Assembly: GCA_964512325.1 (NCBI GenBank) | Contig: CAZEGN010000001.1 | Location: 17,517-81,516, forward strand | Reading direction: 5' to 3' | Length of the DNA stretch: 64,000 bases | From: an uncultured Candidatus Peribacteria bacterium | Lineage (GTDB): Bacteria > Patescibacteriota > Gracilibacteria > RBG-16-42-10 | Shown: positions 21,613 through 46,128 of the stretch, piece after piece | Position numbering within the stretch: the first letter of the stretch is position 1 | Layout: the number at the start of each line of letters is the position of its first letter | Translations under genes and position numbers: made by a program | Notes under the pieces: model-generated | Seen by the model: only the letters and a program-made list of their open reading frames with translations | Databases searched by the model: none | What the model was told of the DNA's origin: nothing

Positions 21613-22572
21613 ATGGATTTACGATCTTTCTTTGAGCAAAATCGCCTCCAGACCACTAGACCAATTATCAACAATCTTGGGGTTGGAACAGTAATTGTGT
21701 CTACAAGATCAGACACACAAGCCGTCTATAGTCCTAGCGCGCTAGGAAAAGCTTGGCTTGGCACAAGAAAGATCACCCGCTTCGTCATCACCACTCTGCT
21801 CATTTTTGGTGTAGTCCAAGTGGGCTTAAACTTCCAAGCATATAAGCAGCAATACGAGTTTTTTAGAGAAAAACAGCTAGCAATTAAAGATCCTCAAAAG
21901 GAAATTCTCAAATCCCTCCAGGTGGCGCCAGCTGCTAATGCTACGATTAGCACCACGCAGGTCGCTCAAGCAGACACCACAAATGTTGAGGATAGCTTCA
22001 CCCTTAGACCAGAGGTGATTAATTTTCGCAATTATGAAGTAGCACCAAGCGACAACCGCATTGTCATTGGCAAAATTGGCAAGAATGTACCAATTGTTCA
22101 GGTATCTGATGAAAAGCTGCTTACCCAAGACTATGCTGGTTTAGAGCAACAGATACAGGAGCAACTACTCAAAGGCATCGTTCATTATCCAGGCACAGCA
22201 AAACCCGGTGAAATTGGCAACTCCTTCTTTACTGGTCACAGCTCGAATTATCCTTGGATTAGTAGTGCTTATAATGCAGTGTTAGCATTACTACAAAATT
22301 TGGTTGTGGGTGATAAAGTCACTGTCTATTGGGAGGGACAAAAGTTTATTTATCAAGTATATGATATTAAAACAGTGTCACCGACCGAGACATGGGTATT
22401 GCAACAAAGTGGCAATGAATACGATTCAATTTTGACACTCATGACCTGTACACCAGTTGGCACCAGCTTAAATCGCCTTATTGTACGCGCTCAACAAATT
22501 TATCCTGATCCTCAAAAAAACACCCCTCCCACCAATAGCGTTATTGCACCTAATAGCTTAATTAGCAGCTAA
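21613..22572 (+). CDS. sortase-family transpeptidase, membrane anchored
   Basis: N-terminal TM ITRFVITTLLIFGVVQV. Catalytic His in FFTGHSSNY, TLMTCTP Cys motif and NRLIVRA Arg. Confidence 0.8.
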   Translation: MDLRSFFEQNRLQTTRPIINNLGVGTVIVSTRSDTQAVYSPSALGKAWLGTRKITRFVITTLLIFGVVQVGLNFQAYKQQYEFFREKQLAIKDPQKEILKSLQVAPAANATISTTQVAQADTTNVEDSFTLRPEVINFRNYEVAPSDNRIVIGKIGKNVPIVQVSDEKLLTQDYAGLEQQIQEQLLKGIVHYPGTAKPGEIGNSFFTGHSSNYPWISSAYNAVLALLQNLVVGDKVTVYWEGQKFIYQVYDIKTVSPTETWVLQQSGNEYDSILTLMTCTPVGTSLNRLIVRAQQIYPDPQKNTPPTNSVIAPNSLISS

Positions 22573-23873: not shown

Positions 23874-23890
23874 AAGACAATAAGGTGAAA

Positions 23891-24385
23891 CTAATTAGCA
23901 GAAGGGGTAACTACAGGCAAAGTTACTTCTGTCTCAGTACTTTGATTTGCGCCTGTAGGATTAGCCACAGCACCCTTTTGGGCAATTCCTTCAGGCAATG
24001 TACAGCCAGTTTTGTCAGCTAGAAACTGTAGACTTTGCCGCCCGGTCACAGGATCTTTGCCATCAAATTTCCATGTTGGTGTAGCTGTAATACCTGCCTC
24101 CTTGCATTCATCAGACCAGGTATTATTGGGCAACTTACACTCAACATAAGTTATGTATTGCATCGATCTTCCGAAATCGGCCTTTTGGGCTAAACAGTGA
24201 GGACAATCAAACATGCCATAAAACACTGCCTTTTTCTCGGTTAAACATTTAGCGAAGTCCGCTAACACACTAGGAGTAAAAAAACGCAAATAAGTAAAAG
24301 CCACAGCTACCACAAAAATAGGTAACACAACCCATAACCAGGTAGGAATTCCTTTTGATTCTTTCTTTGAAGAAGCCATATACAA
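23891..24385 (-). CDS. membrane-anchored thioredoxin-fold thiol:disulfide oxidoreductase (CPHC)
   Basis: N-terminal TM WLWVVLPIFVVAVAF. FYGMFDCPHCLAQKADFG...YVEC...CKEAGITATPTWKF resembles the Trx-like domain that is fused to bacterial VKOR homologues. Confidence 0.7.
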   Translation of the reverse strand: MYMASSKKESKGIPTWLWVVLPIFVVAVAFTYLRFFTPSVLADFAKCLTEKKAVFYGMFDCPHCLAQKADFGRSMQYITYVECKLPNNTWSDECKEAGITATPTWKFDGKDPVTGRQSLQFLADKTGCTLPEGIAQKGAVANPTGANQSTETEVTLPVVTPSAN

Positions 24386-24420
24386 GATTTAAGTCTACGT
24401 AAAAAAGAATAACAAAGATA

Positions 24421-24448
24421 GTGCGAAATGTGAAATGTGAAGCGTGAA
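24421..24448. repeat. heptanucleotide tandem array (ATGTGAA type, 4 units)
   Basis: Units are gtgcgaa atgtgaa atgtgaa gcgtgaa. The array lies between the 724-aa gene stop and the thioredoxin gene start. Confidence 0.8.
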
Positions 24449-24486
24449 CACCAGCGCTAGAACTTATGCTGTAATTTCACACTACT

Positions 24487-26661: not shown

Positions 26662-26727
26662 AATTTCAAGTAGAAAAGATAGTTTGGGGACAGGTGATTA
26701 TAAAGCCAACTCAATAAATTTCAACTC

Positions 26728-28767
26728 TTATTTGGCTTCAAAGTCCTCCGCTTGATTACGCATTTGTAACAATTCTTCTGGGTTGGTAGTAATCACTCGG
26801 TGCTCAGCTGCTGAAGCAATAACTTGAATCGCCACATGCTTTCTACCGGCAAAGAAAATACCTTCACCCTGGACTGAGTTCAGCAAGTAATATTGCTCAC
26901 CTTCAGTAAGGTTAAATATCTTTGCTAAACCTGGTATGGCCGATGGTGCTTGTTTAAGCAAAAGCTGCATTGCGGAGTTGGTAATAATTGATTTGCCAAA
27001 ATCACGTGCAATAAAGTCTTCCACATCTTGAGTAATCGTAGTGACCCCCAGATAATACTTACGAGCTCGTTTCACCAAGCCATAGACGAATCGAGCAGCA
27101 TCATCATGCTGTACCATGGTCCAGGCTTCATCTATTACCAATAGACGGCGCTTCAGCTTACTACGCACGACATTCCAAATATAATTCAAAATGATGTACA
27201 TGGCAGTAGGGCGCAATACCTCATCCAAATCACGCATGCTGAACACCACCAAACCTGCCTTTAAGTTTACATTTGTTGGCTTATTAAAAATACCGGCAAA
27301 AATACCAGCAGTATACTGACGCAAGCGTTGAGCAATATCTTCTCCTCCCTTTGTGTCTTGCAATACATCATACAAATCTTCCATAGTAGGAGCCGGAATA
27401 TTACCAGGATTTACTGTATCCATCGTAATGCCTTTCAAGGCATACGTATCAAGCAAAGCCTGATCAACCAGGCCTTCTTCACGAGGCGTTAAATCACCAA
27501 GCATCAACTTCATTAACCCCTTCAAATTGATAATTGCTGTACGCAGAAGGTCTCCAGGCTGTTCTTCTTTCCCTTCATAAGGCAAAGGCAAATCAAACGG
27601 GTTAATGCGTCGATCAGCGTTGAGCGAAACATCCATATAAGTGCCTCCCACCATATCACAAAGCGCTTTGTACTCATTTTCAGGATCGATTACGATGACA
27701 TCTGTACCGAACATCAAACTACGGAGAATTTCCAGCTTCACAGCATATGATTTACCGGCACCAGAAGTGGCAAATACTACGGAATTAGCATTAGGCAAAC
27801 TGAAGCGGTCGAAAATAATCAGTGAGTTATTATGACGATTAATACCATACAAAATTCCTTGGTCAGAGGTGAGCTCAGATGATGTAAATGGGAAAGAGCT
27901 TGATAAAGGCTCAGTATTCATATTTCTGACTACATAGAGCTCGTCAGTCGCATATGGCAAGGTTGAATGGAAAGCTTGTTCCGTACGAGCCTGAATAGAC
28001 TTGATGACCAACAGTTTACCACCCAAAATAGCCTCTAGCTGTTTCCCAAGATTAGCGAGCTGTTTTTCTGAGGTGGTGTAAATTGTAAAATACAGTCCAA
28101 ATTGGAAAAACTTTTCAACACCAGTAGAAATTTTATCACGAAGCTCTTCGGCATCAGACAAGGCTGCCTCTAAAGCAGGGTCGCGAGCTTGCCCACGCTC
28201 TTGTTGAATACGAATAGCAGATTCCATTTGTCCCACTTTGCTTTGCAAGCTGCGTAGGATTTCTGCTGACACAATAGGATAGACAAACATCGAAATATCC
28301 ATGGTCGCCTCCAAATTAATCACTGGAGCAAGCCAGTTTGTTTCTAGGTAACGAGGATAGGCATAAACGACATAGGTGCGAGCGTAGACATCATTAATGG
28401 TCAGCTTGTCATAATCTACTTTCATGCTCGAAGGGGCAATCAGATCTTTCACCGACGCAAGTCCAGCCTCATAAAGCTTTTGTGCTTCATCAAGCCGTTT
28501 TTGTTCAGAGCTCTTCTGTTCCTCACTTTGAGCGGGCGTATTGCGGTTTAAGAAGCTAAAGCGTTTCTGCATGCTAGTGCGTCCCTGACGCTCAGTCTGC
28601 GTCATTTTCACTTGAGCAGTAGTTGCTACTACGTCCGCTTTTGCAGGAGCATTTTGAATTGCCGGTGCCGGCGACTTTTTTTTGCCTACCAGCATCCCTT
28701 TCAGATCTTGGAAAGATCCTTTTATTTGCGCCCAGAATCCTGATTTTTGAGGAGTAGGATTAGTCAT
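26728..28767 (-). CDS. virB4: VirB4/TrbE/PrgJ-family type IV secretion ATPase
   Basis: Walker A VVFATSGAGKSYAVK (about 27749-27772) and Walker B RRLLVIDEAWTMV. VirB4-type N-terminal domain LTINDVYARTYVVYAYPRYLETNWLAPVINLEATMDISMFVYP. C-terminal GVTTITQDVEDF. Confidence 0.88.
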   Translation of the reverse strand: MTNPTPQKSGFWAQIKGSFQDLKGMLVGKKKSPAPAIQNAPAKADVVATTAQVKMTQTERQGRTSMQKRFSFLNRNTPAQSEEQKSSEQKRLDEAQKLYEAGLASVKDLIAPSSMKVDYDKLTINDVYARTYVVYAYPRYLETNWLAPVINLEATMDISMFVYPIVSAEILRSLQSKVGQMESAIRIQQERGQARDPALEAALSDAEELRDKISTGVEKFFQFGLYFTIYTTSEKQLANLGKQLEAILGGKLLVIKSIQARTEQAFHSTLPYATDELYVVRNMNTEPLSSSFPFTSSELTSDQGILYGINRHNNSLIIFDRFSLPNANSVVFATSGAGKSYAVKLEILRSLMFGTDVIVIDPENEYKALCDMVGGTYMDVSLNADRRINPFDLPLPYEGKEEQPGDLLRTAIINLKGLMKLMLGDLTPREEGLVDQALLDTYALKGITMDTVNPGNIPAPTMEDLYDVLQDTKGGEDIAQRLRQYTAGIFAGIFNKPTNVNLKAGLVVFSMRDLDEVLRPTAMYIILNYIWNVVRSKLKRRLLVIDEAWTMVQHDDAARFVYGLVKRARKYYLGVTTITQDVEDFIARDFGKSIITNSAMQLLLKQAPSAIPGLAKIFNLTEGEQYYLLNSVQGEGIFFAGRKHVAIQVIASAAEHRVITTNPEELLQMRNQAEDFEAK

Positions 28768-29479
28768 TTTCAGTTTGGCCGGCTACTTTGGGAAAGTCGG
28801 TAAGATTTAATTGCAACAGATTTTCTACCTTTTGTCCTTGGGAATTAATTGGATTATGTACCTCATAAAGCATTTGAATCAGCTCATGTGTATTTAAGCG
28901 ACGCACATAGAGACCAGAATTGCCTAAAGCAGCAATAACAGAATTCGCTCTTTGATTCAGTGTTTTTCTTAATGCTGAAAACTCTTGCTGACGGATTTTA
29001 TACTCTAAGCCATTGTCTGAAGGATTGAGCTTCTGCATGAATTTTTGAAAGAAATTTGTACTTTTTACACGATCAGACTCATGTGGAATAACGACATAAA
29101 AGTCCTTTTCCATAATATCAGAGTACTCTACGAAACTAGCCACGAAATCAATGTAGTCGAAAGTCTGCTGCTTGAGACGCGTCTCGCTTTGTTTATTGGC
29201 AATTTCATTCATGCGTGTTAAGTAGCCTTCAATATCAAGGCGCTTGGAACGAATGATGATTTGGATAGGAAAGTCCAAAGCATTTAAGAAGCTCTGATAG
29301 GATAGAATAATAGAGTTTTGTTCTTGTTCTGAAAGCAGCTCAAAGTTAACGCTAGAAACAGCCAGTACCGCTCTTACACTGCCATCTTTAAGCACAATTG
29401 TATTGTCCTTAATCTCAGCGATCTTAAGATGCGTTTGTGTGCTGGCCTCGACATTTCCTTTTCTCTGATTTACTGGCAT
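28760..29479 (-). CDS. T4SS-associated protein resembling a stand-alone VirB4 N-terminal domain
   Basis: LKIAEIKDNTIVLKDGSVRAVLAVSSVNFELLSEQEQNSIILSYQSFLNALDFPIQIIIRS matches the pattern at the start of Gram-positive VirB4 homologues. It overlaps virB4 by 8 nt and has no NTPase motifs. Confidence 0.45.
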   Translation of the reverse strand: MPVNQRKGNVEASTQTHLKIAEIKDNTIVLKDGSVRAVLAVSSVNFELLSEQEQNSIILSYQSFLNALDFPIQIIIRSKRLDIEGYLTRMNEIANKQSETRLKQQTFDYIDFVASFVEYSDIMEKDFYVVIPHESDRVKSTNFFQKFMQKLNPSDNGLEYKIRQQEFSALRKTLNQRANSVIAALGNSGLYVRRLNTHELIQMLYEVHNPINSQGQKVENLLQLNLTDFPKVAGQTEND

Positions 29480-29481
29480 AG

Positions 29482-29976
29482 CTATTTCTTTTTTGAATTG
29501 ACTTTAAACGCTGTGTGTAGCATCTCATCATCGCTAGACTCATCGATATCGCTTAAGCCTTCAGTGTCTAATACAGATGTGAGTTCCTTGAGTGAAGCGA
29601 ACTTCTTTGTGGGCTGTTCTATAGGCTTTTCTACCTGTTTAGCTGGCACTTTAGCCGCAGCCAGATCAAAACGCTCAAAAATCGGCACTTCTCCACTGCC
29701 CTTTTCCCAAACACGCAACCGAGGTTTTAGCATATAAAGGGTCATGGCGACAAGAAACTGCGCAAAGCTCATATCATGAATACGCACCAAGGCAAAAGCG
29801 GCAGTAATAGCGACAACAATTGTCCCGAACACAGGTCCAACTGGCGACTCCAAGTAGGCATACATCATATAAGCAAGCCCTCCACCGACAACAGCAATAA
29901 TCAAGCCTGACATAGTCAGAGGCCCGATAATTGTATCGGCTCGCTGTACATTTTGTGGTACTTTGAACTGTGCCAT
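29482..29976 (-). CDS. PrgI-family (VirB3-like) small T4SS membrane protein
   Basis: From Met30: MAQFKVPQNVQRADTIIGPLTMSGLIIAVVGGGLAYMMY, then a second TM GPVFGTIVVAITAAFALV. This is the typical PrgI/VirB3 architecture, and the gene sits directly upstream of the virB4 module. Confidence 0.65.
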   Translation of the reverse strand: MAQFKVPQNVQRADTIIGPLTMSGLIIAVVGGGLAYMMYAYLESPVGPVFGTIVVAITAAFALVRIHDMSFAQFLVAMTLYMLKPRLRVWEKGSGEVPIFERFDLAAAKVPAKQVEKPIEQPTKKFASLKELTSVLDTEGLSDIDESSDDEMLHTAFKVNSKKK

Positions 29977-30049
29977 GGGGGATTTATATATTTGTATCAA
30001 GCAATTATACCACACAATAAGAGCAAAGTTCAAAGAGCAAAACGGAAAC

Positions 30050-30106
30050 AATTCAAGATTCAAGATTCAAAATGCAAAGAGGAATCATTAATTATAGATG
30101 TATCGA
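30050..30106. repeat. composite heptamer-periodic element (homologous to 47366-47435)
   Basis: aattcaagattcaagattcaaaatgcaaagaggaatcattaattatagatgtatc compared with gaattcaagattcaaaatgaaaaatgcaaagaggatacggaggattataaattatagattatc. Confidence 0.8.
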
Positions 30107-30178
30107 AGCATAGAGATCAGAGCTCAGAGCACATGCATCTCGCCTGCAATTAGGATATTTCCTTATTCCTATTCCCTC

Positions 30179-30213
30179 AATTCCGAGCTCAGAACTCCGA
30201 ATTGCGAATTCTT
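30179..30213. repeat. heptanucleotide tandem array (AATTGCG/AACTCCG type, 5 units)
   Basis: Units are aattccg agctcag aactccg aattgcg aattctt. Confidence 0.8.
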
Positions 30214-30366
30214 TTGCATTTCTTTATAAGCTTCCCAATACTGCTACCAGCCTCTCCCAGGCAACTTGTATCGCCCACCACATATCCAGCAACAAGTTCC
30301 ACAAAAAAGTAAGAATTGTATAAAGAATCTCCATAGGATGAAAATTATACTAGTTGCAGTATAGCA

Positions 30367-33300
30367 CTAGGGAGTTCCTCCGGTATTGCCCGCATTGTTA
30401 TTGCCTCCCTGTTGAGCTTGTTGACGTGCCCGCTCTTTTTCGATTTCAAGCTGCTGTCTATTTTGTCTAGCTCTCTCAACGATACCATCTCTAAACATGT
30501 TTAGGGCAGCAGTACCTTCCGGCAATAACTCAGCCTTACCTTCAGCATTAATTGAACCATATTTGCGATTAGCAGCAACCAAGGCCGCGGCAAAGTCTTC
30601 TTCCAAAATCGCATTCATACGGTCAATTTGTGCTTGCGTAGTGGTAATCGCAGCCACATTCTCCAGCACATCATTCAAATGAGTTCGATTAAAGGTATCT
30701 CCTGCAGTTCTATCCTGCGTTGCGTCCACTGCTGGCAAATTGTTGATTAAACTGGCAAATGTTTTGGCAATCATTTGTGGCGCACTTTCAGTGCTTGCAT
30801 TGACCGCACGAGCAAGTTCAGCAGGATCCATTTGCTTAACGTAGTTGCCAATCTTATCATCATCACCATTAGTAAGAGTAATACTACCAACCTTAGCTAC
30901 ATGAGTATTTCTATTAGAAGCAATTAACTTGCGACCGATATCAGACTCTTCCAGCTTAAACTCTGCCCCCTGAGCATCTCTATATACACCTTCTGTGGCA
31001 AGACTACCAATAATTTGAGCAATCTCAGCGCGTTCTTCATCACTGCCATTTTGCATTGCATCACGTAATGAAGAATGCTGTCTTAATAAGCCGAGTTCCT
31101 GTGCCGCCTGGAACACGCCTCCTCTACCACTTGCCGCGTCTCCGTTTAAGTAGCTATCAAAAATGCCTTTATTCTTTAGATTTACACCCCAGATACCAAT
31201 CGAGCTACCAACCTTTTTGTTTAGAGCACGGAAATCATCTTCGCTAAAGTTCACTGCCTCACTAGGATCACGCGCATATTCGCTCATTGCAAGCAACATT
31301 TCGCGCAAAGCCAATCCGGCACCTTCCGGACCATTACTTATCCAACCACCTTTGCCGTCACGAACTCTATCCGCAATACGCCCTGAGGCAAGCACATTTC
31401 CTAACAAACCAACCATTTCGGCAGCTTGCTGATTTTCACGCAGACTTTTTAAGCGCTCAAAGTTAAATGCTGTTTGGCCAGTTCTGGATGCACGAGATTC
31501 CTCTTTTGCTGCTTTATTATTAATAGCGCTATAGTTAGCATCTTCCAAATTATCCAGCACATTATCAATTTCTTCTGGCCTTGTGCCACTACTCATCAAG
31601 AGTTGTTGCAAATTGTCACGCAGTGATTTTTTATTCTTCATAATTTGCTCCAAGTTCAAATCACCACGAGATGCCAAAATGCGTGCACGTGCTAGCAGTG
31701 CCTGCACATCTCCAGATGAAATCGATTCATCCAAACGCTCACGCAAAAGCTGTTTACTGCTAAAGCGTAATGAATCCAGCTTTTCAATTTCAGACACTTG
31801 AGCCTCACGATGCTGTGTCAACAACGCACGCATTTTTTCTTGTCTAGTGCCAGGCAATACACGAGACATGCTATGAGCACGCTCTAGACCAAAACGGGTA
31901 GCACGCTCTTTAGCATCTTTCTGGAATGACTCATACACAGTTTTCGCTCCGGCAGCTGTGTTTGAAGGTGCTGACATAATCCAACCCAAGCCACGCAAAG
32001 GTGCTCCCAGAGGTCCCTTGATATCTCTTAATCTATTACCGGCAGCTTGGCTCAGTCCATAGCTTAAACCTAGACCCTTTTTAGCATAACCAAATGCAGC
32101 GGAAGGACTGCCCCAGCCGGCGACCTTATCAATAAACCCTTGCGCATAATCCCCTTTAGCAGCGGTAAATACACCAGCATAAATCATGGCAACGATGAAG
32201 ATTAACTTCAAATAATCTGCTAACGATTGGAAACCGGATGGACCAAGTTGTGAACCGGCAATCAGACCTGGTTGTTGCAACGCAGGGCTAAAAATCTGCG
32301 GCACGACACTATCAGCAGCCAAAACAGCCAAAGTCATAAAGAAAGCTACACCAACGTGCATCGTGGCATATTTGAAGAATTTGCTCTGCCACTGACCACC
32401 AATACTTGAGGTTAAAGGAGACAGTTTGCTAACCACATATAATGGCGATGTAATTGCTAAAGCCCAAAGCACAATAATACGAATAGTAAAGGTAATCGCT
32501 AAAGCTAAGAAACCAAAAAGCAACATGAATACCATTAGGAAAAGCGCCATATTGGCAAAGAAAAAGTCAATTTGTCGACCGGGCTGATTGGCATTATTTG
32601 AAATCGAATAACGTTGCATCTCCTCAAATTTCAAACCACGTGCCAATCGACAGAGCACACTACCTTCTTTTACATCATCAGGAATAGTGGAAATTCTCCA
32701 GCCTCCGGCGGCTACCTGGCTTGCAGTCAGCTGCGAACAACGAGCTTCAGTACCTGCACCATGAGGTCCCATGCCACCGACTTGATATACCCCAGCCTCA
32801 ACCACATTTGCAGCATCAATAACCAGACCAACGAACAAGCGTGAAAAGTTCACCGCAATGACAATCACAATTAGCTTAGGCAGAATAGTTTTAATTGCAT
32901 AATTATTGATTTCGTATTGGACAATATTTGCAATTGCAATACCTAGCAATGCAAGAATGAAGAACAAATTCACAAAGTCACGGATAGCCATCCACATCGT
33001 CACTACAAATGATGACGTGGTAAATCCGGTGTAGCTAAGAACGGACTGAAATAAACTCATTACCAATGCGGCCAACCAAAAACAGAATTTGATTAAGAGG
33101 GCAAGAATGACATTAATGAAACTCAATATTGCGTTGAGCAATTGATTACCGACATCGACGCCATCCACATCATGTCCAGCCTCTCGATTAGTAATCGTAG
33201 CCTGATCTTCTTCATCTAAGCTCAAACAAGTAGGATTGCTGATACAAGCATCAATACGTCCAATGAGGCTTTGTAAAGCTTGCACTGTCGCTGGTGAACG

Positions 33301-35301
33301 AGCCATGCTGAGTGTTGCTCCTCCTGAAACTGTAACCTCAAATGAGAAGTTGCGTGAAAGAATGAGCGTGAACTCGTTATTAGTATTTGACCCATCAACG
33401 AAGTTAGCTTCATGTTGCAAACACGCTTTCCAACTTGGCAAATTATCTTTGTTGATAGTGTCAGAAAAGAGATTAGGCGAACAAGCATTGAGCAACTTGG
33501 CTAAGAAAGGATCTGTAAACCATGTACTTATGCCTGTAGCGTCACGTTCATCAATTAATAATTCCAAATCACCGGTCGTATGAATAATCGCTCCGACGTA
33601 ATTGGGTTGGTGATCATTGGTAGCTAATGCGTACCACAAACCAATAGCAGCATCTTTAGGTGAACTAGCAAGAGCAGTGCGATCAATATAACTATTTAAC
33701 TGCTCTAAGGCGCTTCTGCGCGTATCAGACTGACCACGGACCACATTTCCTAATGATTGCTGGAAAACCTGAGTATTTTGCTGCGCCGTACTTCCTCCGG
33801 CTGCAGGTGGATTTGCCGCAGGGGGTGCAGGTAGAGGTCGATCTAAATAGGTGGAAGCCTGACTAATGAGCCTTTCATTAATTGCTTTTAGATGTCTTAC
33901 TAATGGTGCACGAACCGCATTATTTAATGTAGTAATGAACACGGCGCTCTCTGTTGGCGCGGTAGCTGCTTGAGCAGAACTAAATTGCACTTGGCTAGAA
34001 TCAAAAACACCAGCGCCAAATTCTAAATAGCCTTCGTATATTGTTTCTTTCAAGAAATCTTCCAAGCTGTATTCAAACTTTTGCACCGCTAAAGCATCAT
34101 AACCATCAGCTAAATCAAGATAATTATCATTACGCAAAAAGTTAACCAACAGCGCACGATCAGCCGCAGGAACAGAAGTAGCTAAACTATTGGTAGCCTC
34201 AATAAGAATACTGGTGGCAAAAGATCTACCATCAGCGGACATGTTCACGCCATTAGTACCACCTGTGTCAGTCAGATGAACTTGATAGCATTGACCTAAG
34301 CGAGTGACATATGTGTCGTTAGGATTAGCTGCAACCTCTCTCTGACAAAGGGCCATTAAGCGTCCAATTGGCCCACGCGTGCCAAATATGCTTTCTTCGG
34401 TGTAATGCTCAGAATAAAAGTTACGGAAATTAACATAGGATGTTCCATTTGAAGCACGAAAAATCGTACCATTACCTTGATTTACGGTCTCAATAAACTG
34501 CTTGAGCGCTCGCATCTTAGCGTTAATTCCACTAGCTCTGGCACGAGCAACATCTGTAGGCTCAGCAGGAGGAGGCATATCAGATCGGCTACCAATATCA
34601 GCGATCATGTACACCATTGCAGCAGCTAAACCACGAGCTCCAAAACTACCCGCACCTAAAACATTCTCTCGAGAAGAACAAAATGGCACATCACCATCTC
34701 CGTTCTCTCCATACCAAGCTAGCCCACGGTAACTGCCTGGCAAATCATCGGTGTTTCTAGAAGGACCTCCTGGCGGAATATCCAAAATCTGACACAATAC
34801 ATCATTAGCGTTACCATCCATCATGGTATCAAACACTTCCCCAATTTCTTCAAAACCGCCCATACCGTCTAACCCCACTAAACTATTCTCACGAAGATAC
34901 AGATCAATAGTTTGAGATTGCGATGATGCGGTTGGCACTGCAGAGCCATAGATACGTTCCATAACGCTATTTGGCAAACCTGCAGCTGTTCCTAGTGCAT
35001 TATTATCAAAAAAGCTAAACAATGGCACCTTGATTACATTTTGCCAAATAGTTCTAGCAGGCTCATCCAAGTCATCACGGTTTAAACATTCACGTATTTG
35101 TACCCAAGTTGTAAGATCATTTTCATCGCTACAGTCATTAAAAAAGCCCGCAAACGTAGAAGAAGAGGCTCTAGCTTGAGGAGTATTTAAGGACACAGTT
35201 GGTAAGCCACTTGAAATGGAGATAACTAACAAAGCGACTAGCACCATCAACTTTTGTAGTGCTTTGAAAAAGATCGAGAATTGCTTGGGGGAGGGAGCCA
35301 T
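30367..35301 (-). CDS. giant VirB6/TrbL-like polytopic T4SS membrane protein with large N- and C-terminal extensions
   Basis: Signal/TM LMVLVALLVISISSGLP. An extracytoplasmic region of about 700 aa. Multi-TM core (about 32270-33160) with LNAILSFINVILALLIKFCFWLAALVMSLF. A hydrophilic tail of about 630 aa ends in QQAQQGGNNNAGNTGGTP. Confidence 0.6.
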   Translation of the reverse strand: MAPSPKQFSIFFKALQKLMVLVALLVISISSGLPTVSLNTPQARASSSTFAGFFNDCSDENDLTTWVQIRECLNRDDLDEPARTIWQNVIKVPLFSFFDNNALGTAAGLPNSVMERIYGSAVPTASSQSQTIDLYLRENSLVGLDGMGGFEEIGEVFDTMMDGNANDVLCQILDIPPGGPSRNTDDLPGSYRGLAWYGENGDGDVPFCSSRENVLGAGSFGARGLAAAMVYMIADIGSRSDMPPPAEPTDVARARASGINAKMRALKQFIETVNQGNGTIFRASNGTSYVNFRNFYSEHYTEESIFGTRGPIGRLMALCQREVAANPNDTYVTRLGQCYQVHLTDTGGTNGVNMSADGRSFATSILIEATNSLATSVPAADRALLVNFLRNDNYLDLADGYDALAVQKFEYSLEDFLKETIYEGYLEFGAGVFDSSQVQFSSAQAATAPTESAVFITTLNNAVRAPLVRHLKAINERLISQASTYLDRPLPAPPAANPPAAGGSTAQQNTQVFQQSLGNVVRGQSDTRRSALEQLNSYIDRTALASSPKDAAIGLWYALATNDHQPNYVGAIIHTTGDLELLIDERDATGISTWFTDPFLAKLLNACSPNLFSDTINKDNLPSWKACLQHEANFVDGSNTNNEFTLILSRNFSFEVTVSGGATLSMARSPATVQALQSLIGRIDACISNPTCLSLDEEDQATITNREAGHDVDGVDVGNQLLNAILSFINVILALLIKFCFWLAALVMSLFQSVLSYTGFTTSSFVVTMWMAIRDFVNLFFILALLGIAIANIVQYEINNYAIKTILPKLIVIVIAVNFSRLFVGLVIDAANVVEAGVYQVGGMGPHGAGTEARCSQLTASQVAAGGWRISTIPDDVKEGSVLCRLARGLKFEEMQRYSISNNANQPGRQIDFFFANMALFLMVFMLLFGFLALAITFTIRIIVLWALAITSPLYVVSKLSPLTSSIGGQWQSKFFKYATMHVGVAFFMTLAVLAADSVVPQIFSPALQQPGLIAGSQLGPSGFQSLADYLKLIFIVAMIYAGVFTAAKGDYAQGFIDKVAGWGSPSAAFGYAKKGLGLSYGLSQAAGNRLRDIKGPLGAPLRGLGWIMSAPSNTAAGAKTVYESFQKDAKERATRFGLERAHSMSRVLPGTRQEKMRALLTQHREAQVSEIEKLDSLRFSSKQLLRERLDESISSGDVQALLARARILASRGDLNLEQIMKNKKSLRDNLQQLLMSSGTRPEEIDNVLDNLEDANYSAINNKAAKEESRASRTGQTAFNFERLKSLRENQQAAEMVGLLGNVLASGRIADRVRDGKGGWISNGPEGAGLALREMLLAMSEYARDPSEAVNFSEDDFRALNKKVGSSIGIWGVNLKNKGIFDSYLNGDAASGRGGVFQAAQELGLLRQHSSLRDAMQNGSDEERAEIAQIIGSLATEGVYRDAQGAEFKLEESDIGRKLIASNRNTHVAKVGSITLTNGDDDKIGNYVKQMDPAELARAVNASTESAPQMIAKTFASLINNLPAVDATQDRTAGDTFNRTHLNDVLENVAAITTTQAQIDRMNAILEEDFAAALVAANRKYGSINAEGKAELLPEGTAALNMFRDGIVERARQNRQQLEIEKERARQQAQQGGNNNAGNTGGTP

Positions 35302-40683: not shown

Positions 40684-40725
40684 GAGGACGAATTTTGAAT
40701 TCGGCGATCGGAATTCGGAATTTAT
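40684..40725. repeat. heptanucleotide tandem array (AATTCGG type, 6 units)
   Basis: Units are gaggacg aattttg aattcgg cgatcgg aattcgg aatttat. The array lies in the divergent intergenic region between 40581 and 40748. Confidence 0.85.
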
Positions 40726-40747: not shown

Positions 40748-43054
40748 ATGAGAAGAAAATATCACTGGCTAGCATTATTATTGACTATCTCTAGCAGTAT
40801 AGCAGGACTTTTTTTGAATACCGCCACCACTGTTTCAGCTCAAAGCACGGGAACTCGTTGTACTACTTCCGGCGAAACGCTTTTTTTGAGATTTAATTAT
40901 GTGCCAACGCCGGGGCAGGGATATTTGGAGAATAAAGCAATTATTTACGTACCAAAAGAAGCGCAATGTGCAGGTACTTTTCCCATGTATGTCCACCTGC
41001 ATGGTGATAATAAATATACTGATAATATTAGCCCCTATTACCTTCCCTCTACCGTAAACGGTCAAAGAGAAACAGCACACTATAATGATCATGGCACGAT
41101 TCGAGAGGATGTAGGTAGCAATCAGTTTAAGAGTGCGATTGAAGCAGCAATGCGTAATAGTCGTGTGCCCGGCATGATCTTTGTGCTTCCCGTGAACACC
41201 AGCAATCCTTCACATTGGGTAAATCTCAATGGTGCTACCCTGAAATCAGCAGTACAAAGTGCGCTCGATAGCAATCCACTTACGCAAGGCAAAGGCATTC
41301 GTATTGGTAACGACACTTTGTTATCAGGACACTCTGGAGCGGCATGCCATGCCAATGAAGGCTTAATGAACTTTCCAGGATTGAATCCGAAAGCAGTCGC
41401 AGTGGTTGATGCTTGTGTTAGCTTGCGCGATGGCACCTCAGTATACCAAACCATTGCTAACGCCCACCCCAACGCCACATTGCTATTTTATGCAGCCAAT
41501 ATGGCCTATGATAATGCCACGTATACAAACAATGTAGAAACGGGCGGATATCACAATATTTTGCAAGCGCTCCGTTTTCAGCAGCAAAGTTCCTGTGATG
41601 CTAATGTCTTTCTTCATCCTCATAATCCTACCCAAAGCAAATCGTATGGCAGACCAGCAGGATCGCATTTTCGGCAATATTGGGACAATCCTCAACTATG
41701 GTGTTCAAAAAGCCCTGACCATCCTTGGTACGGACTATTTGCCACCAGTGTAGATCACCGTAGCGCTGCGGGGCTTGGAGTCAGAACATTGATTAATCTT
41801 TACTTCGCGCAAAATACTCCAACTGCACCTGCTACTAATAATACCAATGCGGCAGCGCAAACGAATCCAAACACTGGTAGCACTACTAATACTACGACAA
41901 TTAGTAGCAATAATGCTCCGTCAGTCTCAGGGACTGTGCCTTTAGAAATCAGCATCAATGGCATTCGTAGCATTTCAGGTAATGATCAAGGCTACATTAT
42001 TAATTACGCCCGTACAGTATTTCTCTACGCCGCGGGTCTCACCGGTACCTTAGCCTTACTTGTACTGATCGTTGCAGGCTTACAAATTATCTTTTCCAGT
42101 GAAGCTGAGCAAAATAAGCAGGCAAAACAGCTTATTATTGGAAGTCTTAGCGGCTTAGCTTTATTAGCAACCAGCGGCTGGATTTTATATTTGATTAATC
42201 CCTGTTTCTTTAGTTTCGGTAGCAGCTCTACTTGTACACCACGTGGTACGCAACCAGCGCAATATACTTTTACGCAGCCGGTGAATAATTCCACGATTAA
42301 CCGAACTGGTACACCACCTCCTCCTCCCAGTCCCAATTGCAATAACAGCACTCAGACCTGTGATGTGGTTTTACCAGTACCTTATGTGTCCCAAGTGGCA
42401 GCACCAGATGAATGTAGTTATGACAATATCTGTGCCACCAATAGACGGGCGGGGAGTGAAAATGACGGCTCAAATCCCAAATGGGGCCAGGTCAGCTGTG
42501 GCGCCGCGGCATTTAGCATTGCTTACTTATATGTAAGTGGAAATAGCACTCCCACCAATGATTTCCTAAGATCGTTTATTAATGATTACTTCCGTTGTGG
42601 GATCCACGGACTTCCACCAGAGCAAAGTGCTCGTATTGGCGGCTACGATGCTCGCTCTGCACCTCGCACCTATAATGATGATCTCTGTGCTTATACTCTA
42701 GGCTCAGGGGGGGAAGTAGATACACTGACTCGTATTCTCAAGACACAACTGGGAGCTCAAGGCACGCGCACTATTTCCGATTTAACCCCACAAGCAATGT
42801 ACCAAGCACTTTCTGCTGGTCACCCCATTGTAATTGGCGGTGTTATTAGGGACCGCAGTACCGGGAACTTTGTTCCATCAGGGCATTATACGGTCATTAT
42901 TGGCATACGTGGCTATAATCAAAGCAATGGGCAATTTACTGACTTGGTTATCCATGACGTAGGACGGCAAGCAAATAGCCCCCTCACTATGGCCAATTAC
43001 ACTTCTCTTCGTAGCAGCAATGAGCTGCAAAGAGGCATAGCAGTAGCGATGTAA
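40748..43054 (+). CDS. secreted tripartite protein: serine-hydrolase-like domain, VirB2/T4SS-pilin-like TM hairpin, C39-like cysteine peptidase domain
   Basis: Signal peptide ...TATTVSAQS. Nucleophile elbow GHSGA (Ser codon 41333-41335). N/T-rich linker. Hairpin VFLYAAGLTGTLALLVLIVAGLQIIFSSEAEQNKQAKQLIIGSLSGLALLATSGWILYLIN (about 42020-42200). C-terminal VPYVSQ...VSCGAAA (Cys 42497-42499)...SGHYTVIIG...VIHDVG. Confidence 0.65.
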   Translation: MRRKYHWLALLLTISSSIAGLFLNTATTVSAQSTGTRCTTSGETLFLRFNYVPTPGQGYLENKAIIYVPKEAQCAGTFPMYVHLHGDNKYTDNISPYYLPSTVNGQRETAHYNDHGTIREDVGSNQFKSAIEAAMRNSRVPGMIFVLPVNTSNPSHWVNLNGATLKSAVQSALDSNPLTQGKGIRIGNDTLLSGHSGAACHANEGLMNFPGLNPKAVAVVDACVSLRDGTSVYQTIANAHPNATLLFYAANMAYDNATYTNNVETGGYHNILQALRFQQQSSCDANVFLHPHNPTQSKSYGRPAGSHFRQYWDNPQLWCSKSPDHPWYGLFATSVDHRSAAGLGVRTLINLYFAQNTPTAPATNNTNAAAQTNPNTGSTTNTTTISSNNAPSVSGTVPLEISINGIRSISGNDQGYIINYARTVFLYAAGLTGTLALLVLIVAGLQIIFSSEAEQNKQAKQLIIGSLSGLALLATSGWILYLINPCFFSFGSSSTCTPRGTQPAQYTFTQPVNNSTINRTGTPPPPPSPNCNNSTQTCDVVLPVPYVSQVAAPDECSYDNICATNRRAGSENDGSNPKWGQVSCGAAAFSIAYLYVSGNSTPTNDFLRSFINDYFRCGIHGLPPEQSARIGGYDARSAPRTYNDDLCAYTLGSGGEVDTLTRILKTQLGAQGTRTISDLTPQAMYQALSAGHPIVIGGVIRDRSTGNFVPSGHYTVIIGIRGYNQSNGQFTDLVIHDVGRQANSPLTMANYTSLRSSNELQRGIAVAM

Positions 43055-43057
43055 AAT

Positions 43058-44056
43058 ATGACCAAAAAACTTCTTTTTCTGGGCGTCTTCGTTGTCCTCA
43101 TCATCACTGCAGCAATCATTTTGATCATGCCAGGTGATCAGCAAAATATATCTCAACCTGTAACAAATACGAGCACAACTCCCCTGACCACACCGCAGTC
43201 ATCTCCAGTTGCCGAGCAACTCGAAGTTACTATCCTTTCCACACCGCAAACAGCAACCATTGTGGTTGATGGTTTGAGCATTGGTCAAACGCCACTGCAA
43301 TACACCTTCAATCACAACCAAAGCTATCAGTTAAAGGCACTGAAAGAGGGTTATATTCCGTTGATAATAACTTACACTCCAAACGAATCCACCCTGCGCT
43401 TACAGCTTCAGCCAATAAATACTCCCAGCACGACAGCTGATATTGTAATATCAAATACCACAGCTCCTGCACTTGCAACACCCCAGGCAACTAATACCCC
43501 CCAAGCAACATTATCTCCCCTCCCTTTTCCAAGTGCTCCTGACTTGCACGTTATTACTCGTACCAACAATACATTCACCTACACTCCTGCAGCTTCAACA
43601 CCGAGCACTACTTCCACTCCCACCCCGAGCACATCTAGTCCTATACCAACAACACAAACTACTACATTACCACCGCCAGCACCTGCGCAAACTCCTTCCC
43701 CAGCACAAATCAGTAGCTATAATCAGTTAATTGCTCAATATTCTGGCGTACAAGATTTTCCAGCTGATGACACTGTGCAGGAAGGAACAAGCAATGAAAA
43801 AGGCGTGATTGTTAGCATGAATTGGTTTTATACTGAAAATGCATATGCCCTAGCAGGCTTTCCGATTCGTTTTATTAGTGACGGCAATACACAATGCACT
43901 TTGCGTGCATTAAGTGTACAGGGTGATTTAGCGATAGGAACTTTACGGGGCAATGACAGCCTTCTTTTTACTGCAACTCCAGGTACGGATGAAACTTTAC
44001 GCTTTAGATGCCAAGAACGTCCGACGATCACACTCGATCTCAACATTTTTTCTTAA
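43058..44056 (+). CDS. TM-anchored PEGA-domain protein with Thr/Pro/Ser-rich linker
   Basis: N-terminal TM LLFLGVFVVLIITAAIILIM. PEGA-like QTATIVVDGLSIGQTPLQYTFNHNQSYQLKALKEGYIP. Low-complexity linker TPSTTSTPTPSTSSPIPTTQTT. C-terminal domain has two Cys. Confidence 0.65.
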   Translation: MTKKLLFLGVFVVLIITAAIILIMPGDQQNISQPVTNTSTTPLTTPQSSPVAEQLEVTILSTPQTATIVVDGLSIGQTPLQYTFNHNQSYQLKALKEGYIPLIITYTPNESTLRLQLQPINTPSTTADIVISNTTAPALATPQATNTPQATLSPLPFPSAPDLHVITRTNNTFTYTPAASTPSTTSTPTPSTSSPIPTTQTTTLPPPAPAQTPSPAQISSYNQLIAQYSGVQDFPADDTVQEGTSNEKGVIVSMNWFYTENAYALAGFPIRFISDGNTQCTLRALSVQGDLAIGTLRGNDSLLFTATPGTDETLRFRCQERPTITLDLNIFS

Positions 44057-44059
44057 ACC

Positions 44060-44950
44060 ATGAAGAAAGTCTTATTACTTCTTTTTCTTATTGTGCTCAT
44101 CGGAGCAGCAGTAATGACCAGCAAAGACATTTTCTTCCCCACAACATCTCTTACAAATGAACTTGGTCCCCAAGGCCGTGTCACTGTACTTGCACCGATC
44201 ACTATTATTTCAACTCCAACTGAAGCCACAGTACGCTTGAATGGTAACGTAATGGGCACAACTCCTCTTTCTCTCGCCAATCTTCGCCAGCATAACAATG
44301 TAATTACTCTCGAAAAGAGTGGCTTTAGCAAAATTACTATAGCGCTAGCTCCCCCTGATAGCGCAACCACCATAGCTTTTGATTTGCAAAAACAAACCTA
44401 CCAAACTAGCTCTATACCAGAAAAGAGTTTTCAAGAAACACTGGATTATCTGAATAATAATGACGCCAATATCCCATTTGAGCTGACTGGCAAGATAGTT
44501 GTGCCTGAAGGATTTCGCTTTCCTGACAATGCAGATATAAATCAGCCTCTTAATCTAGAACCTATCCCGCTTGCGCTCCTCCGAGATTCCACCACGCAAC
44601 AAATGCCGCTTGATCAACGCAGCACTCTTTTTAATCGATTGAATACCAATTATCGCTATGATCCAAACACACAGACAATGTTTACAGAAGCCTTTCGCTT
44701 TGCAGTCAGCATTATCAATTTTGAAACATTCGATCCACAGACACTGAATATACGCAGTGGCAGTGAATTGCTTTGGTACAATCAAAGCACTGAAGATTGT
44801 GAATTACGAACAGACCCAAAGTCACCCATGCGCATCAATCAAAAAGTGGCAGTACAGAAAAGCACAGTACTTAGCTTAATTAATCCTGGCATTTACATCT
44901 TTTTTTGTCAGGGTAATCCTGGACCTACTCAGACCATTACCGTTTACTAA
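44060..44950 (+). CDS. TM-anchored PEGA-domain protein with cupredoxin-like C-terminal domain
   Basis: TM LLLLFLIVLIGAAVM. PEGA-like TEATVRLNGNVMGTTPLSLANLRQHNNVITLEKSGFS. C-terminal LNIRSGSELLWYNQSTEDCELRTDP...GIYIFFCQGNPGPTQTITV. Confidence 0.6.
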   Translation: MKKVLLLLFLIVLIGAAVMTSKDIFFPTTSLTNELGPQGRVTVLAPITIISTPTEATVRLNGNVMGTTPLSLANLRQHNNVITLEKSGFSKITIALAPPDSATTIAFDLQKQTYQTSSIPEKSFQETLDYLNNNDANIPFELTGKIVVPEGFRFPDNADINQPLNLEPIPLALLRDSTTQQMPLDQRSTLFNRLNTNYRYDPNTQTMFTEAFRFAVSIINFETFDPQTLNIRSGSELLWYNQSTEDCELRTDPKSPMRINQKVAVQKSTVLSLINPGIYIFFCQGNPGPTQTITVY

Positions 44951-44952
44951 TT

Positions 44953-46128
44953 ATGGCTATTAATAAAAGAAAAAGCGTTCTTGCTCTTATTCCATTTTTT
45001 GCAACCACAATCGGTGTCGCGATATTTATTATTTTCTTTAATTATGGGGAGCTCACCTTTACAGCAGAATCCCCCTTTAGTGTGACCACTGGAAAAGAAA
45101 CAGTGAATGATACGAATGGTGTTGTTCATCTACGACTGGCTGCTGGCGAACAGACAATAGTAGCTAAAAAAGCAGGCTATTTCGATCAAACATTTCAAGA
45201 AACAGTTGCTGTAAATGCACAGAAAGAAATCGCAGTGGATTTTAGCTTTATTCCAGTCAGCGCCAGTATCAAATTTATTCCACCAATCAGCTACAGCAGT
45301 AGTCAACAAATAAACGACAATCAAGTCATGGACTTACTGTTCACAGCGCCAATTACTCAAGCCGTAACGCCTCCTAGTGGCTATACGAGAGCAGTCTGGG
45401 CACAAAATGGCACTAGCGCCTGCTTCTTTAATCCCACCAATCCTTTACTTGAACCTAAGCTATGGCAAAAAAATAAAAACTTGCAATCACTACCAACTAA
45501 TACTTTCAACTGCTTTTCAGCACCGCAAACAATTATTTCAGCACAGCTCAACAATCAAAACTTGCTTATCAATAGCAAGCTTGTAAAACGGAATGTGCAA
45601 CTTAATACCATTCTCAACATTGATCCATCAGGTACATGGGGATTATTAGCCGAAACCTATCCCAATAGTTCAAACACACTAGTTTCAGTATTTAACTTAA
45701 ACACCAATCAGCTCATTGAAATTGGTACATTTACACTCATCGAGCCAGCCAGATTTATCAGCATAGACAGATTTGCGCTGCGTACCAGCACAGGAACTGC
45801 AATATACGTACTATCTGCCCCTCAAACAGCAATATTATTATCGTTCAATGTACCATTAACACAGCTCGCTTATAGCACGAGCACTCAAAGTTACTATTAC
45901 CTCACACCAACTCCTGCTAGCGGCCTGCCTTCATTTTCAGAACTGTTAGAAAATAACAGTGTAAGAACGCTGTCTTTAGTAAGCAATAAAAGTGGCAAAG
46001 AAATGCTATTACAAACCTTCAAACCTGAGCAAAATTTTTCCGGCCTAAGCATAAGCCAAGATGGGAAGAAACTGTTTGCAGTCAATAAAGACACGCTTGA
46101 ATTGCAAAGTTATCAACTACAACCTTAG
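44953..46128 (+). CDS. TM-anchored PEGA-like protein with beta-rich C-terminal domain
   Basis: TM LALIPFFATTIGVAIFIIFF. PEGA-like VHLRLAAGEQTIVAKKAGYFDQTFQETV. The long C-terminal Ser/Thr/Asn-rich region looks beta-strand-like. Starts 2 nt after the previous gene. Confidence 0.55.
   Translation: MAINKRKSVLALIPFFATTIGVAIFIIFFNYGELTFTAESPFSVTTGKETVNDTNGVVHLRLAAGEQTIVAKKAGYFDQTFQETVAVNAQKEIAVDFSFIPVSASIKFIPPISYSSSQQINDNQVMDLLFTAPITQAVTPPSGYTRAVWAQNGTSACFFNPTNPLLEPKLWQKNKNLQSLPTNTFNCFSAPQTIISAQLNNQNLLINSKLVKRNVQLNTILNIDPSGTWGLLAETYPNSSNTLVSVFNLNTNQLIEIGTFTLIEPARFISIDRFALRTSTGTAIYVLSAPQTAILLSFNVPLTQLAYSTSTQSYYYLTPTPASGLPSFSELLENNSVRTLSLVSNKSGKEMLLQTFKPEQNFSGLSISQDGKKLFAVNKDTLELQSYQLQP

Follow-up and report, generated by a model that had tools for sequence, protein, structure and literature searches.

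A VirB2-like pilin module between two predicted hydrolase domains in a secreted protein of a Candidatus Peribacteria bacterium

What is to be made of a secreted protein that carries the two-helix hairpin of a type IV secretion system (T4SS) pilin in its middle and what appears to be an enzyme at either end? The question is raised by an open reading frame (ORF) of an uncultured Candidatus Peribacteria bacterium, located at 40748..43054 (+) of a 64,000-nucleotide stretch of contig CAZEGN010000001.1, hereafter the window; it starts with ATG and encodes 768 amino acids (aa). A preliminary description of this gene had proposed an enzyme-decorated pilin or anchor rather than a simple pilin, and the predicted order of a pilin module flanked by two hydrolase-fold domains agrees with it. 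We regard it as reasonably probable that the product is a modular VirB2-like pilin of the T4SS_pilin family in the candidate phyla radiation (CPR) with a hydrolase at each terminus, so that two enzymes able to degrade an envelope would sit at the T4SS on the outside of the cell.

In the one species tested, epibiotic growth requires the patescibacterial T4SS together with its VirB2-like pilins; the systems come without relaxase and coupling proteins, and both their cargo and the mode by which they reach the host are an open question (PMC10633639, PMC11665869, PMC12857230). The T4SS of Saccharibacteria includes genes for VirB2-like pilins and depends on them (PMC10633639), and such pilins are widespread near virB4 in Patescibacteria, in which VirB1 homologues are mostly missing (PMC12102498). 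Both pilins and pilin arrays have been described for the phylum (PMC10633639, PMC12102498, PMC12857230); a full-text literature search of incomplete coverage returned nothing on pilin units that are flanked by enzymes or extended past their C-terminal motif.

A T4SS pilin unit with extensions at both ends

The 768-aa protein has 12 homologues at 35-64% identity, eight of which share its architecture end to end, and syntenic copies of the gene occur in 10 further loci; it is thus a conserved gene and not a chance ORF. The family is small: 12 cluster representatives reach E ≤ 1e-30, and two large collections yielded 14 loci. The organisms that carry related loci belong to Candidatus Peribacteria, Gracilibacteria and Abawacabacteria (the class Peribacteria is placed by NCBI in Ca. 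Peregrinibacteriota). An alternative genetic code, in which UGA specifies Gly as in Gracilibacteria, was considered and rejected in view of long unbroken ORFs under table 11 and of closest matches in Peribacteria. The ORF coordinates given in the preliminary description are exact and each sequence feature that it listed for a secreted protein is present, the Asn/Thr-rich linker being located at aa 357-396. Hydropathy reveals two strongly hydrophobic stretches beyond the signal peptide and no others, at approximately aa 423-446 and 462-483; the signal peptide cleavage site was placed by inference from an AxA-like motif.

The two hydrophobic helices belong to a module that reads, in order, VPLE, a beta-hairpin, GYIINY, helix 1, the joining loop SSEAEQNKQAKQ with K458, helix 2, INPCFF and finally C496-x-P-R. 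Taken alone, the window protein scores 18.0 bits against PF18895 (T4SS_pilin; E 0.0031, cut-off 26.6) and matches the NCBIfam Mbov_0395 pilin-like conjugal transfer family weakly (E 0.04). At the level of the family PF18895 is matched by 12 of the 13 members with a best E-value of 1.8e-08, and paralogues that share the module score 25-35 bits on it. A profile of the 103-residue module, searched against 1.84 billion protein cluster representatives, retrieves 5,540 of them at E ≤ 1e-3, of which 341 reach E ≤ 1e-10, with E-values of 1e-13 to 1e-16 for ordinary pilins. All 20 sampled matches carry PF18895, and three also carry TrbC/VirB2 (PF04956), one of these above its cut-off. The hairpin had been likened to T4SS pilins from the outset, and it is the homologues and the sampled profile matches that bear this out, the window protein by itself being sub-threshold.

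The kinship amounts to more than shared hydrophobicity, because the alignment covers motifs common to the module and to canonical pilins: GYIxNY before the first helix, the loop Lys within AK(E/Q)RI, and INPxFF. Since the homology spans everything from the pre-helix GYIxNY to the terminal INPxFF, the hairpin corresponds to a full pilin unit to which domains have been added at both natural ends. Ordinary CPR pilins end in INPTFF; its counterpart INPCFF in the window protein is internal and is followed by a second invariant Cys ten residues on, by Pro-Arg, by a Pro-rich linker and by a further domain. A T4SS_pilin protein is expected to be small and to end right after helix 2, whereas here 268 aa follow the module and about 365 aa lie between it and the signal peptide. 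A search for a second stand-alone pilin with narrow and broad pilin hidden Markov models, run on six-frame ORFs of at least 40 aa, found none in the window, and the module under study is the sole one there, T4SS gene cluster included. It is also the best conserved part of the protein: mean pairwise identity within the orthologue set is 60-65% for the pilin module, 54-55% for the catalytic domains and 26-32% for the linkers.

Canonical pilins consist of a signal peptide and a hairpin, so that both of their termini are extracytoplasmic and the loop is cytoplasmic. For the window protein this homology, the Sec-type signal peptide, the conserved cysteines in both flanks and the short Lys loop together imply that both flanking domains lie outside: the N-terminal domain would be external, helix 1 would run inwards to a short cytoplasmic Lys loop and helix 2 outwards to an external C-terminal domain. 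The outward orientation of both enzyme domains had been suggested before, and the signal peptide, the pilin homology, the Cys pairs and the loop Lys all agree with such a topology. There are 15 cysteines. All 13 homologues keep six of them in the N-terminal domain and two immediately behind helix 2; the remaining seven reside in the C-terminal domain.

Two predicted hydrolase domains

The N-terminal domain contains GHSGA at aa 194-198, invariant in 13 of 13 sequences, and a proposed triad of S196 (nt 41333-41335), D221 (41408-41410) and H337 (41756-41758), all three likewise invariant; H269 is an alternative His. In the AlphaFold2 (AF2) model, in which the predicted local distance difference test (pLDDT) score is about 80-94 across the domain, strand 184-196 runs into a helix at the GHSGA elbow, D221 ends the next strand and H337 comes after the last one. 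A Foldseek search of the PDB with the whole protein as query returned feruloyl esterase 1gkl, esterase D 3fcx, the Streptococcus esterase 4rot and many cutinases and PETases; for the N-terminal domain the probabilities are 0.99-1.0, the E-values 6e-4 to 1e-2 and the target-normalised template modelling score reaches 0.53. Searches of Pfam, NCBIfam, PHROGs and the sequences in the PDB, family profiles included, matched the domain to no sequence family. The domain is so predicted to be an esterase, on a sequence-novel branch of the alpha/beta-hydrolase fold.

One relative of this domain was found outside the pilin fusions, by an N-domain profile search that says little on distribution. It is 22% identical and belongs to P0161, a lipoprotein-type secreted protein of 463 aa from a high-G+C non-CPR organism, with a Cys-rich N-terminal region and no Pfam match. 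P0161 keeps SGHSGAGC, VDxC and IDH, and with them the Ser and the His, as well as the Asp as judged by eye; the alternative His269 is not kept.

The C-terminal domain displays VPYVSQ, VSCGAAA (C584), GHYTVII (H713) and IHDVG (D737). Its proposed triad of C584 (nt 42497-42499), H713 (42884-42886) and D737 (42956-42958) is invariant in 9 of 9 orthologues; two of the nine have Met in place of the oxyanion-type Gln of VPYVSQ. Searched alone against Pfam, the domain scores 19.5 bits on Peptidase_C70 (cut-off 19) and 19.9 bits on Peptidase_C39_2 (cut-off 24). The latter alignment covers profile positions 2-141 of 143, and C39_2 is matched by six of the nine orthologues with a best E-value of 3.9e-4. 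The AF2 domain model has a predicted template modelling score of 0.73, with low confidence in region aa 550-582. In the numbering of that model helix 57-70 starts with C584, strand 187-197 follows H713 and strand 205-210 ends with D737, positions that indicate a papain-like arrangement. Foldseek ranks the C39-like peptidase 3erv first (E 9.3e-5, probability 1.0), ahead of staphopain, cathepsins and AvrRpt2. Amongst predicted viral structures the best matches are to peptidase domains, namely those of phage lysozyme and endolysin, of mycobacteriophage Lysin A, of tape-measure proteins and of phi29 gp13-like morphogenesis hydrolases (E 8e-5 to 6e-3), and these fold matches would point to a cell-wall peptidase rather than to a leader-peptide protease.

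Several searches were less productive. The C-terminal domain used alone as a homologue query returned nothing and missed the known orthologues too, a result that says little on distribution. PDB sequence searches with the whole protein, a whole-family profile and a C-domain profile gave nothing meaningful, PHROGs held no match for the whole protein or for either domain, and Pfam and NCBIfam detected no SLT, CHAP, NlpC/P60 or LytM domain in the window protein.

The preliminary description had read the GHSGA domain as serine-hydrolase-like and the C-terminal domain as C39-like or papain-like. Both calls fit the predicted folds; in the second case the support comes from 3erv and the invariant Cys, His and Asp, with C39_2 below its cut-off and C70 just above. 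The putative catalytic residues, on whose presence those calls depended, are found in the sequence: the Ser/Asp/His and the Cys/His/Asp set are both invariant and occupy canonical secondary-structure positions in the AlphaFold models.

These observations bear on the sceptical view that the hairpin resembles pilins as any two hydrophobic helices would and that the catalytic motifs are fortuitous. Such a view can appeal to the window protein alone, which stays below the PF18895 and C39_2 cut-offs, and to the N-terminal domain without a sequence-family match. We consider it highly improbable, given module profile E-values of 1e-13 to 1e-16 in a library of 1.84 billion proteins with 20 of 20 sampled matches identified as PF18895, the alignment of non-hydrophobic motifs, catalytic residues that remain invariant over 35-64% identity at canonical structural positions, and fold-match probabilities of 0.99-1.0.

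A pilin cassette and its genomic setting

The module's closest relatives form a subfamily with the signature NPCFF...C..R, which accounts for 20 of the best 160 of the 5,540 profile matches. The N-terminal partners of the pilin unit include, besides the alpha/beta-hydrolase, a NAGPA phosphodiester glycosidase (P0014, P0015, P0019, P0020, P0022 and L007 9038-11350) and a GDSL/SGNH hydrolase (P0016 and L001 494-2272). On the C-terminal side there are C39-like domains, weak CHAP-like ones in two homologues, a sub-threshold M15 and two domains without family assignment; for these alternative C-domains, which come from the NAGPA-type, GDSL-type and CHAP-like paralogues, PDB sequence searches gave no informative match. 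Where a genome has several paralogues, among them neighbouring genes on a single contig (L001, L011, L016), these have the cassette alone in common, at 50-63% identity over 105-150 aa. Relatives of the window protein were also expected to show whether the fusion is kept: eight homologues have the same architecture, and at locus L010 the syntenic slot holds a bare pilin. This stand-alone protein of the NPCFF subfamily (2351-2773, +; 132-140 aa) lies downstream of a divergent orf472 homologue and upstream of a cupredoxin-like gene, and it comprises a signal peptide that ends in AQ, a mature part VPLEAP...INPCFF...C.PRS and then a stop codon. At the level of sequence, the pilin unit is shown to behave as a cassette that occurs with different enzyme partners.

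Extensions of at least 120 aa on both sides of the hairpin are present in 22 of the best 160 profile matches. In 82 of the best 160 there is an N-extension of at least 120 aa without family assignment; these are proteins of 200-370 aa with the hairpin at the extreme C-terminus (P0040-P0160), and N-terminally decorated pilins seem to be the usual form in the CPR. Three or more hairpins occur in 21 of the best 160, such poly-pilins being the fused equivalent of CPR pilin gene arrays. One of them, P0043 (1775 aa), contains 14-16 tandem T4SS_pilin hairpins (PF18895 E 6e-92; TrbC PF04956 E 1e-23). Four hairpins are present in both P0017 (612 aa) and P0021 (618 aa); a Pfam scan of P0017, the one of the two so examined, places an SLT lytic transglycosylase domain at its end (E 6.5e-19). 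Wall hydrolases have thus been joined to the pilin family elsewhere too, in this instance as a VirB1-type enzyme on VirB2-type modules.

Could the window protein be a precursor, whose linkers are cut after export so that a soluble esterase and/or peptidase is freed and a canonical mature pilin (VPLE...C.PR) assembles? The C39-like domain could then act as a maturation protease, either for the protein itself or for N-extended CPR pilins. The boundaries invite the idea: the mature N-terminus of the stand-alone pilin, between AQ and VPLEAP, coincides exactly with the point at which the module begins in the fusion proteins, where it is preceded by small residues (GG-T, SG-T, GT-A), and the stand-alone pilin stops at C.PRS, exactly where linker 2 begins. 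Both linkers are moreover disordered and poorly conserved, the N-extensions of at least 120 aa in 82 of the best 160 pilin matches might need removal, and C39-family enzymes classically process leader peptides. Yet none of the exchangeable N-terminal domains (alpha/beta-hydrolase, GDSL, NAGPA) is a protease, so that a part for them in maturation makes no sense, the nearest viral folds of the C-terminal domain are wall lysins, and no conserved double-glycine leader-type site precedes the cleavable segment, the loop in the window protein reading SSEAEQ and not GG. On this evidence we judge a precursor quite unlikely.

The position of the gene raises a different issue (Table 1). Upstream, on the opposite strand, lies a monoderm-type T4SS gene cluster; 5,447 nt separate the start codon from the first gene of this cluster, in keeping with the 5.4 kb to the VirB4 operon noted earlier, and a P-type ATPase gene and two divergent ORFs intervene. 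The ATPase gene is missing in L002, and in L002 and L016 the orthologue is located about 2.8-2.9 kb from the giant T4SS gene. The same cluster is found upstream of the orthologue in L002, L003, L004, L006 and L016, making synteny in six genomes, and the place of the gene between the T4SS cluster and infC-rplT is kept in Peribacteria-like genomes. Downstream, the gene and its three successors (43058..46128), with gaps of 2-3 nt, form a probable operon. Their order is kept in L001-L004, L009, L011-L013, L015 and L016, and infC-rplT come next wherever the flank suffices.

Table 1. Coordinates of the gene, of its parts and of neighbouring features in the window
Feature	Position	Strand	Basis or remarks
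Whole gene: signal peptide, alpha/beta-hydrolase domain, linker, T4SS pilin module, linker, papain-like peptidase domain	40748..43054	+	
Sec-type signal peptide, aa 1-31	40748..40840	+	MRRKYH, hydrophobic core, VSA before and QS after the cleavage site; hydropathy and sequence
N-terminal alpha/beta-hydrolase fold domain, aa 33-356, ~325 aa (predicted)	40844..41815	+	AF2 and Foldseek
Linker 1, aa 357-396, Asn/Thr/Pro-rich, predicted disordered	41816..41935	+	pLDDT <50; 30% mean identity, versus 54-60% in the domains
CPR-type T4SS (VirB2-like) pilin module, aa 397-500	41936..42247	+	PF18895 family-level matches, profile search
Helix 1, aa 423-446	42014-42085	+	Hydropathy/sequence
Helix 2, aa 462-483	42131-42196	+	Hydropathy/sequence
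INPCFF motif	42194-42211	+	After helix 2
Linker 2, aa 501-535, Pro/Thr-rich	42248..42352	+	pLDDT <50; 26-32% identity
C-terminal papain-like (C39-like/C70-like) cysteine peptidase domain, aa 536-768 (predicted)	42353..43051	+	Pfam, AF2, Foldseek
PEGA protein	43058-44056	+	Pfam
PEGA + cupredoxin-like protein	44060-44950	+	Pfam
391-aa membrane-anchored protein	44953-46128	+	No credible Pfam match at E ≤ 1
Two divergent Pro/Ala-rich ORFs, 325 and 472 aa	38149..40581	-	No Pfam match, even at E ≤ 1
T4SS gene cluster, monoderm-type	22569..35301	-	Pfam and sequences
1644-aa polytopic protein	30367-35301	-	No credible Pfam match at E ≤ 1
PrgI/VirB3-like	29482-30063	-	Pfam
TraC-like N-part of VirB4, 238 aa	28760-29479	-	Pfam
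VirB4 P-loop part, 678 aa	26728-28767	-	Pfam
724-aa transmembrane + M23-like protein	24487-26661	-	Peptidase_M23 23.8 bits vs cut-off 28.7
CPHC protein	23891-24385	-	FDCPHC after N-terminal transmembrane segment; no Pfam match at E ≤ 1
PEGA protein	22569-23873	-	Pfam
Sortase gene	21613-22572	+	PF04203, E 1e-23; abuts T4SS cluster

This arrangement can be taken to mean that the hairpin is an exapted two-helix anchor of an ordinary surface hydrolase, engaged in turnover of the cell's own wall or in scavenging, and that proximity to the T4SS is incidental to the infC-rplT neighbourhood. The intervening P-type ATPase gene and two unrelated ORFs speak for such a reading, as do the apparent co-transcription with PEGA-domain envelope proteins and not with virB4, the bulky cargo, which disfavours filament assembly, and the occurrence of CPR pilin hairpins in many odd contexts, poly-hairpin proteins included. 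Against it, the module is the most conserved segment (60-65% versus 54-55% for the catalytic domains), which is unexpected for a generic anchor; it is 50-63% identical between paralogues that are otherwise unrelated, and the pilin-specific motifs outside the membrane, GYIxNY, the loop Lys and INPxFF, are all kept. The bare pilin in the same slot of L010, the lack of any other encoded pilin within the 64 kb around the T4SS genes and the short distance of some 2.8-2.9 kb between the orthologue and the giant T4SS gene in L002 and L016 tell against a mere anchor as well, and we hold this explanation to be unlikely.

Some features of the neighbourhood deserve mention in their own right. The two VirB4 halves overlap by 8 nt, and because L002 has the same two-gene arrangement the split is probably genuine and not a frameshift error. 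The 724-aa protein begins with about 380 aa of charged low-complexity sequence (Gly/Asn/Glu/Lys/Gln-rich), followed by a transmembrane block and the M23-like region, and it may be the cluster's own wall hydrolase. The Cys-richness of the window protein had been connected with a CPHC oxidoreductase encoded in this cluster. The cysteines and the FDCPHC motif of the gene at 23891-24385 are both there, but no Pfam family is matched even at E ≤ 1, which leaves a thiol-oxidoreductase role, and with it the putative link to the pilin protein, as a motif-level remark only. Genes for three membrane proteins with PEGA domains surround the T4SS and pilin loci; one of the proteins has a cupredoxin-like C-terminus, and the PEGA genes that follow the pilin gene are kept in all related loci. 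The two Pro/Ala-rich ORFs, whose segment has a G+C content of 0.478 against approximately 0.42 elsewhere, evolve fast: orf472 is 22-25% identical to its syntenic counterparts, with weak homologues in L002 (E 9e-9) and L010 (E 7e-5). In the 166-nt divergent intergenic region GAATTCGG is present twice, at 40697-40704 and 40711-40718 (+) with starts 14 nt apart; the copies are situated 30-50 nt upstream of the ATG and could serve as an operator or as part of a promoter. The gene has no evident Shine-Dalgarno sequence, and promoter and terminator scans around the operon, which found fewer sites than in shuffled sequence, were uninformative.

Proposed role and comparison with known systems

In solved VirB2-family pili both termini are found on the outer surface of the filament, with the loop lining its lumen, so cargo at both ends of the unit is topologically compatible with display on the outside. 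Three observations, namely the non-membrane motifs that have been kept, the conservation of the cassette in paralogues and the bare pilin found at this locus in another genome, favour a unit that continues to dock to the T4SS and/or to co-assemble with pilins over a generic anchor. A role in envelope degradation is suggested by the repertoire of partners (serine esterases, GDSL, phosphodiester glycosidase, cysteine peptidase, SLT) and by the likeness to phage lysins. We envisage that flexible linkers of 35-40 residues would hold an esterase and a peptidase of peptidoglycan or envelope proteins on the outer face of the membrane, at the T4SS. The protein might be a minor subunit co-assembled into a VirB2-type pilus, or alternatively a pilin-like membrane anchor docked at the base of the T4SS. 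In either form the enzymes might open a passage for the T4SS in the wall of the cell itself, which is the VirB1 role, and/or attack the envelope of the host at the contact site, the bacterium itself presumably being epibiotic or parasitic.

A number of points weigh against an enzyme-bearing pilin of this kind. The Pfam scores of the C-terminal domain straddle their cut-offs, aa 550-582 are modelled with low confidence, and C39-like folds include processing proteases as well as wall hydrolases. The N-terminal domain matches no family with a name, and Foldseek, queried with the whole protein, gave it modest E-values, the best being 6e-4. Amongst the alternative C-domains the matches are weak, namely E 0.005 for CHAP and 25.3 bits versus a cut-off of 27 for M15. 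The P-type ATPase gene and two divergent ORFs lie between the gene and the T4SS cluster, and the topology is itself inferred from homology and sequence features. By an estimate based on published F- and T-pilus geometry, a cargo of about 65 kDa per hairpin would be hard to fit into a homopolymeric VirB2-type filament. A homopolymeric pilus of the 768-aa protein alone was rejected on this steric estimate; we favour sparse incorporation into a pilus or residence at the T4SS base.

The doubly enzyme-decorated T4SS pilin thus stands, for the present, as an architectural prediction from sequence, if a well-supported one. A bolder version holds that the T4SS pilus, or a membrane-proximal stalk, of Peribacteria and related CPR bacteria is partly built from VirB2-like pilins armed with lytic enzymes at both outward-facing ends, which digest the host envelope where the cells touch, with an enzyme set exchangeable by cassette shuffling about a conserved pilin core; this we put forward tentatively and regard as doubtful. 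A pilin hard-wired to hydrolases nevertheless yields a testable hypothesis, namely that the pilus or T4SS platform presents envelope-degrading enzymes, and it offers a candidate for the wall-breaching (VirB1) function, homologues of VirB1 being absent from most CPR genomes (PMC12102498). The architecture would also mean that a VirB2-type pilin can bear, or has become adapted to bear, a large domain at either terminus, which is of relevance to the engineering of display on conjugative pili. To our knowledge large terminal domains have been described for type IV pili, and we have found no case of a T4SS pilin. As the family is small and lineage-restricted, the direct reach of these considerations is limited to Peribacteria-, Gracilibacteria- and Abawacabacteria-like organisms.

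With the VirB2-like pilins of the CPR (PF18895), such as those of the essential Ca. Southlakia epibionticum array (PMC10633639) and those surveyed in PMC12102498, the window protein has in common export by a signal peptide, GYIxNY, two helices, the Lys loop, INPxFF and proximity to virB4/virB3. Canonical CPR pilins are about 100-300 aa long and end at INPxFF, whereas here the pilin is an internal unit in which INPCFF is followed by a Cys 10 residues on and then by a 233-aa peptidase domain; unlike in typical CPR pilins, the N-extension is a recognisable enzyme fold. The VirB1-type hydrolases of monoderms (PrgK of pCF10, TraG of pIP501, TrsG and CD419) are likewise membrane-anchored, extracytoplasmic multi-domain proteins encoded with a monoderm-type T4SS. 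They carry SLT, CHAP, NlpC/P60 or LytM domains, of which CHAP would be the analogue of the predicted cysteine peptidase, and their anchor is a single N-terminal transmembrane helix instead of a pilin hairpin; an esterase-type domain is foreign to known VirB1 proteins. The likeness to VirB1 would accordingly be one of function and not of family.

Amongst structurally characterised peptidases, 3erv from Bacillus anthracis and AvrRpt2 (C70) share with the C-terminal domain the predicted fold, the Cys-His-Asp order and a near-full-length C39_2 alignment. The differences from 3erv are an identity of about 14%, marginal scores, an additional Cys-rich insertion (aa 550-582, of low model confidence) and the predicted extracytoplasmic, pilin-tethered location. 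The concept of grafting a functional domain onto a pilin module for presentation on a filament is familiar from the modular type IV pilins PilB and PilC of Streptococcus sanguinis. These have a type IVa fold and belong to an unrelated type IV pilus system, with adhesive cargo at one end, in contrast to the predicted enzymes at both ends here. Phage lysins, finally, share the fold of the C-terminal domain with no sequence-level homology in PHROGs. In mycobacteriophages the peptidase Lysin A and the alpha/beta-hydrolase esterase Lysin B act as a pair to breach a complex envelope; the pairing in the window protein mirrors theirs and would join both predicted activities on one membrane-anchored cellular protein.

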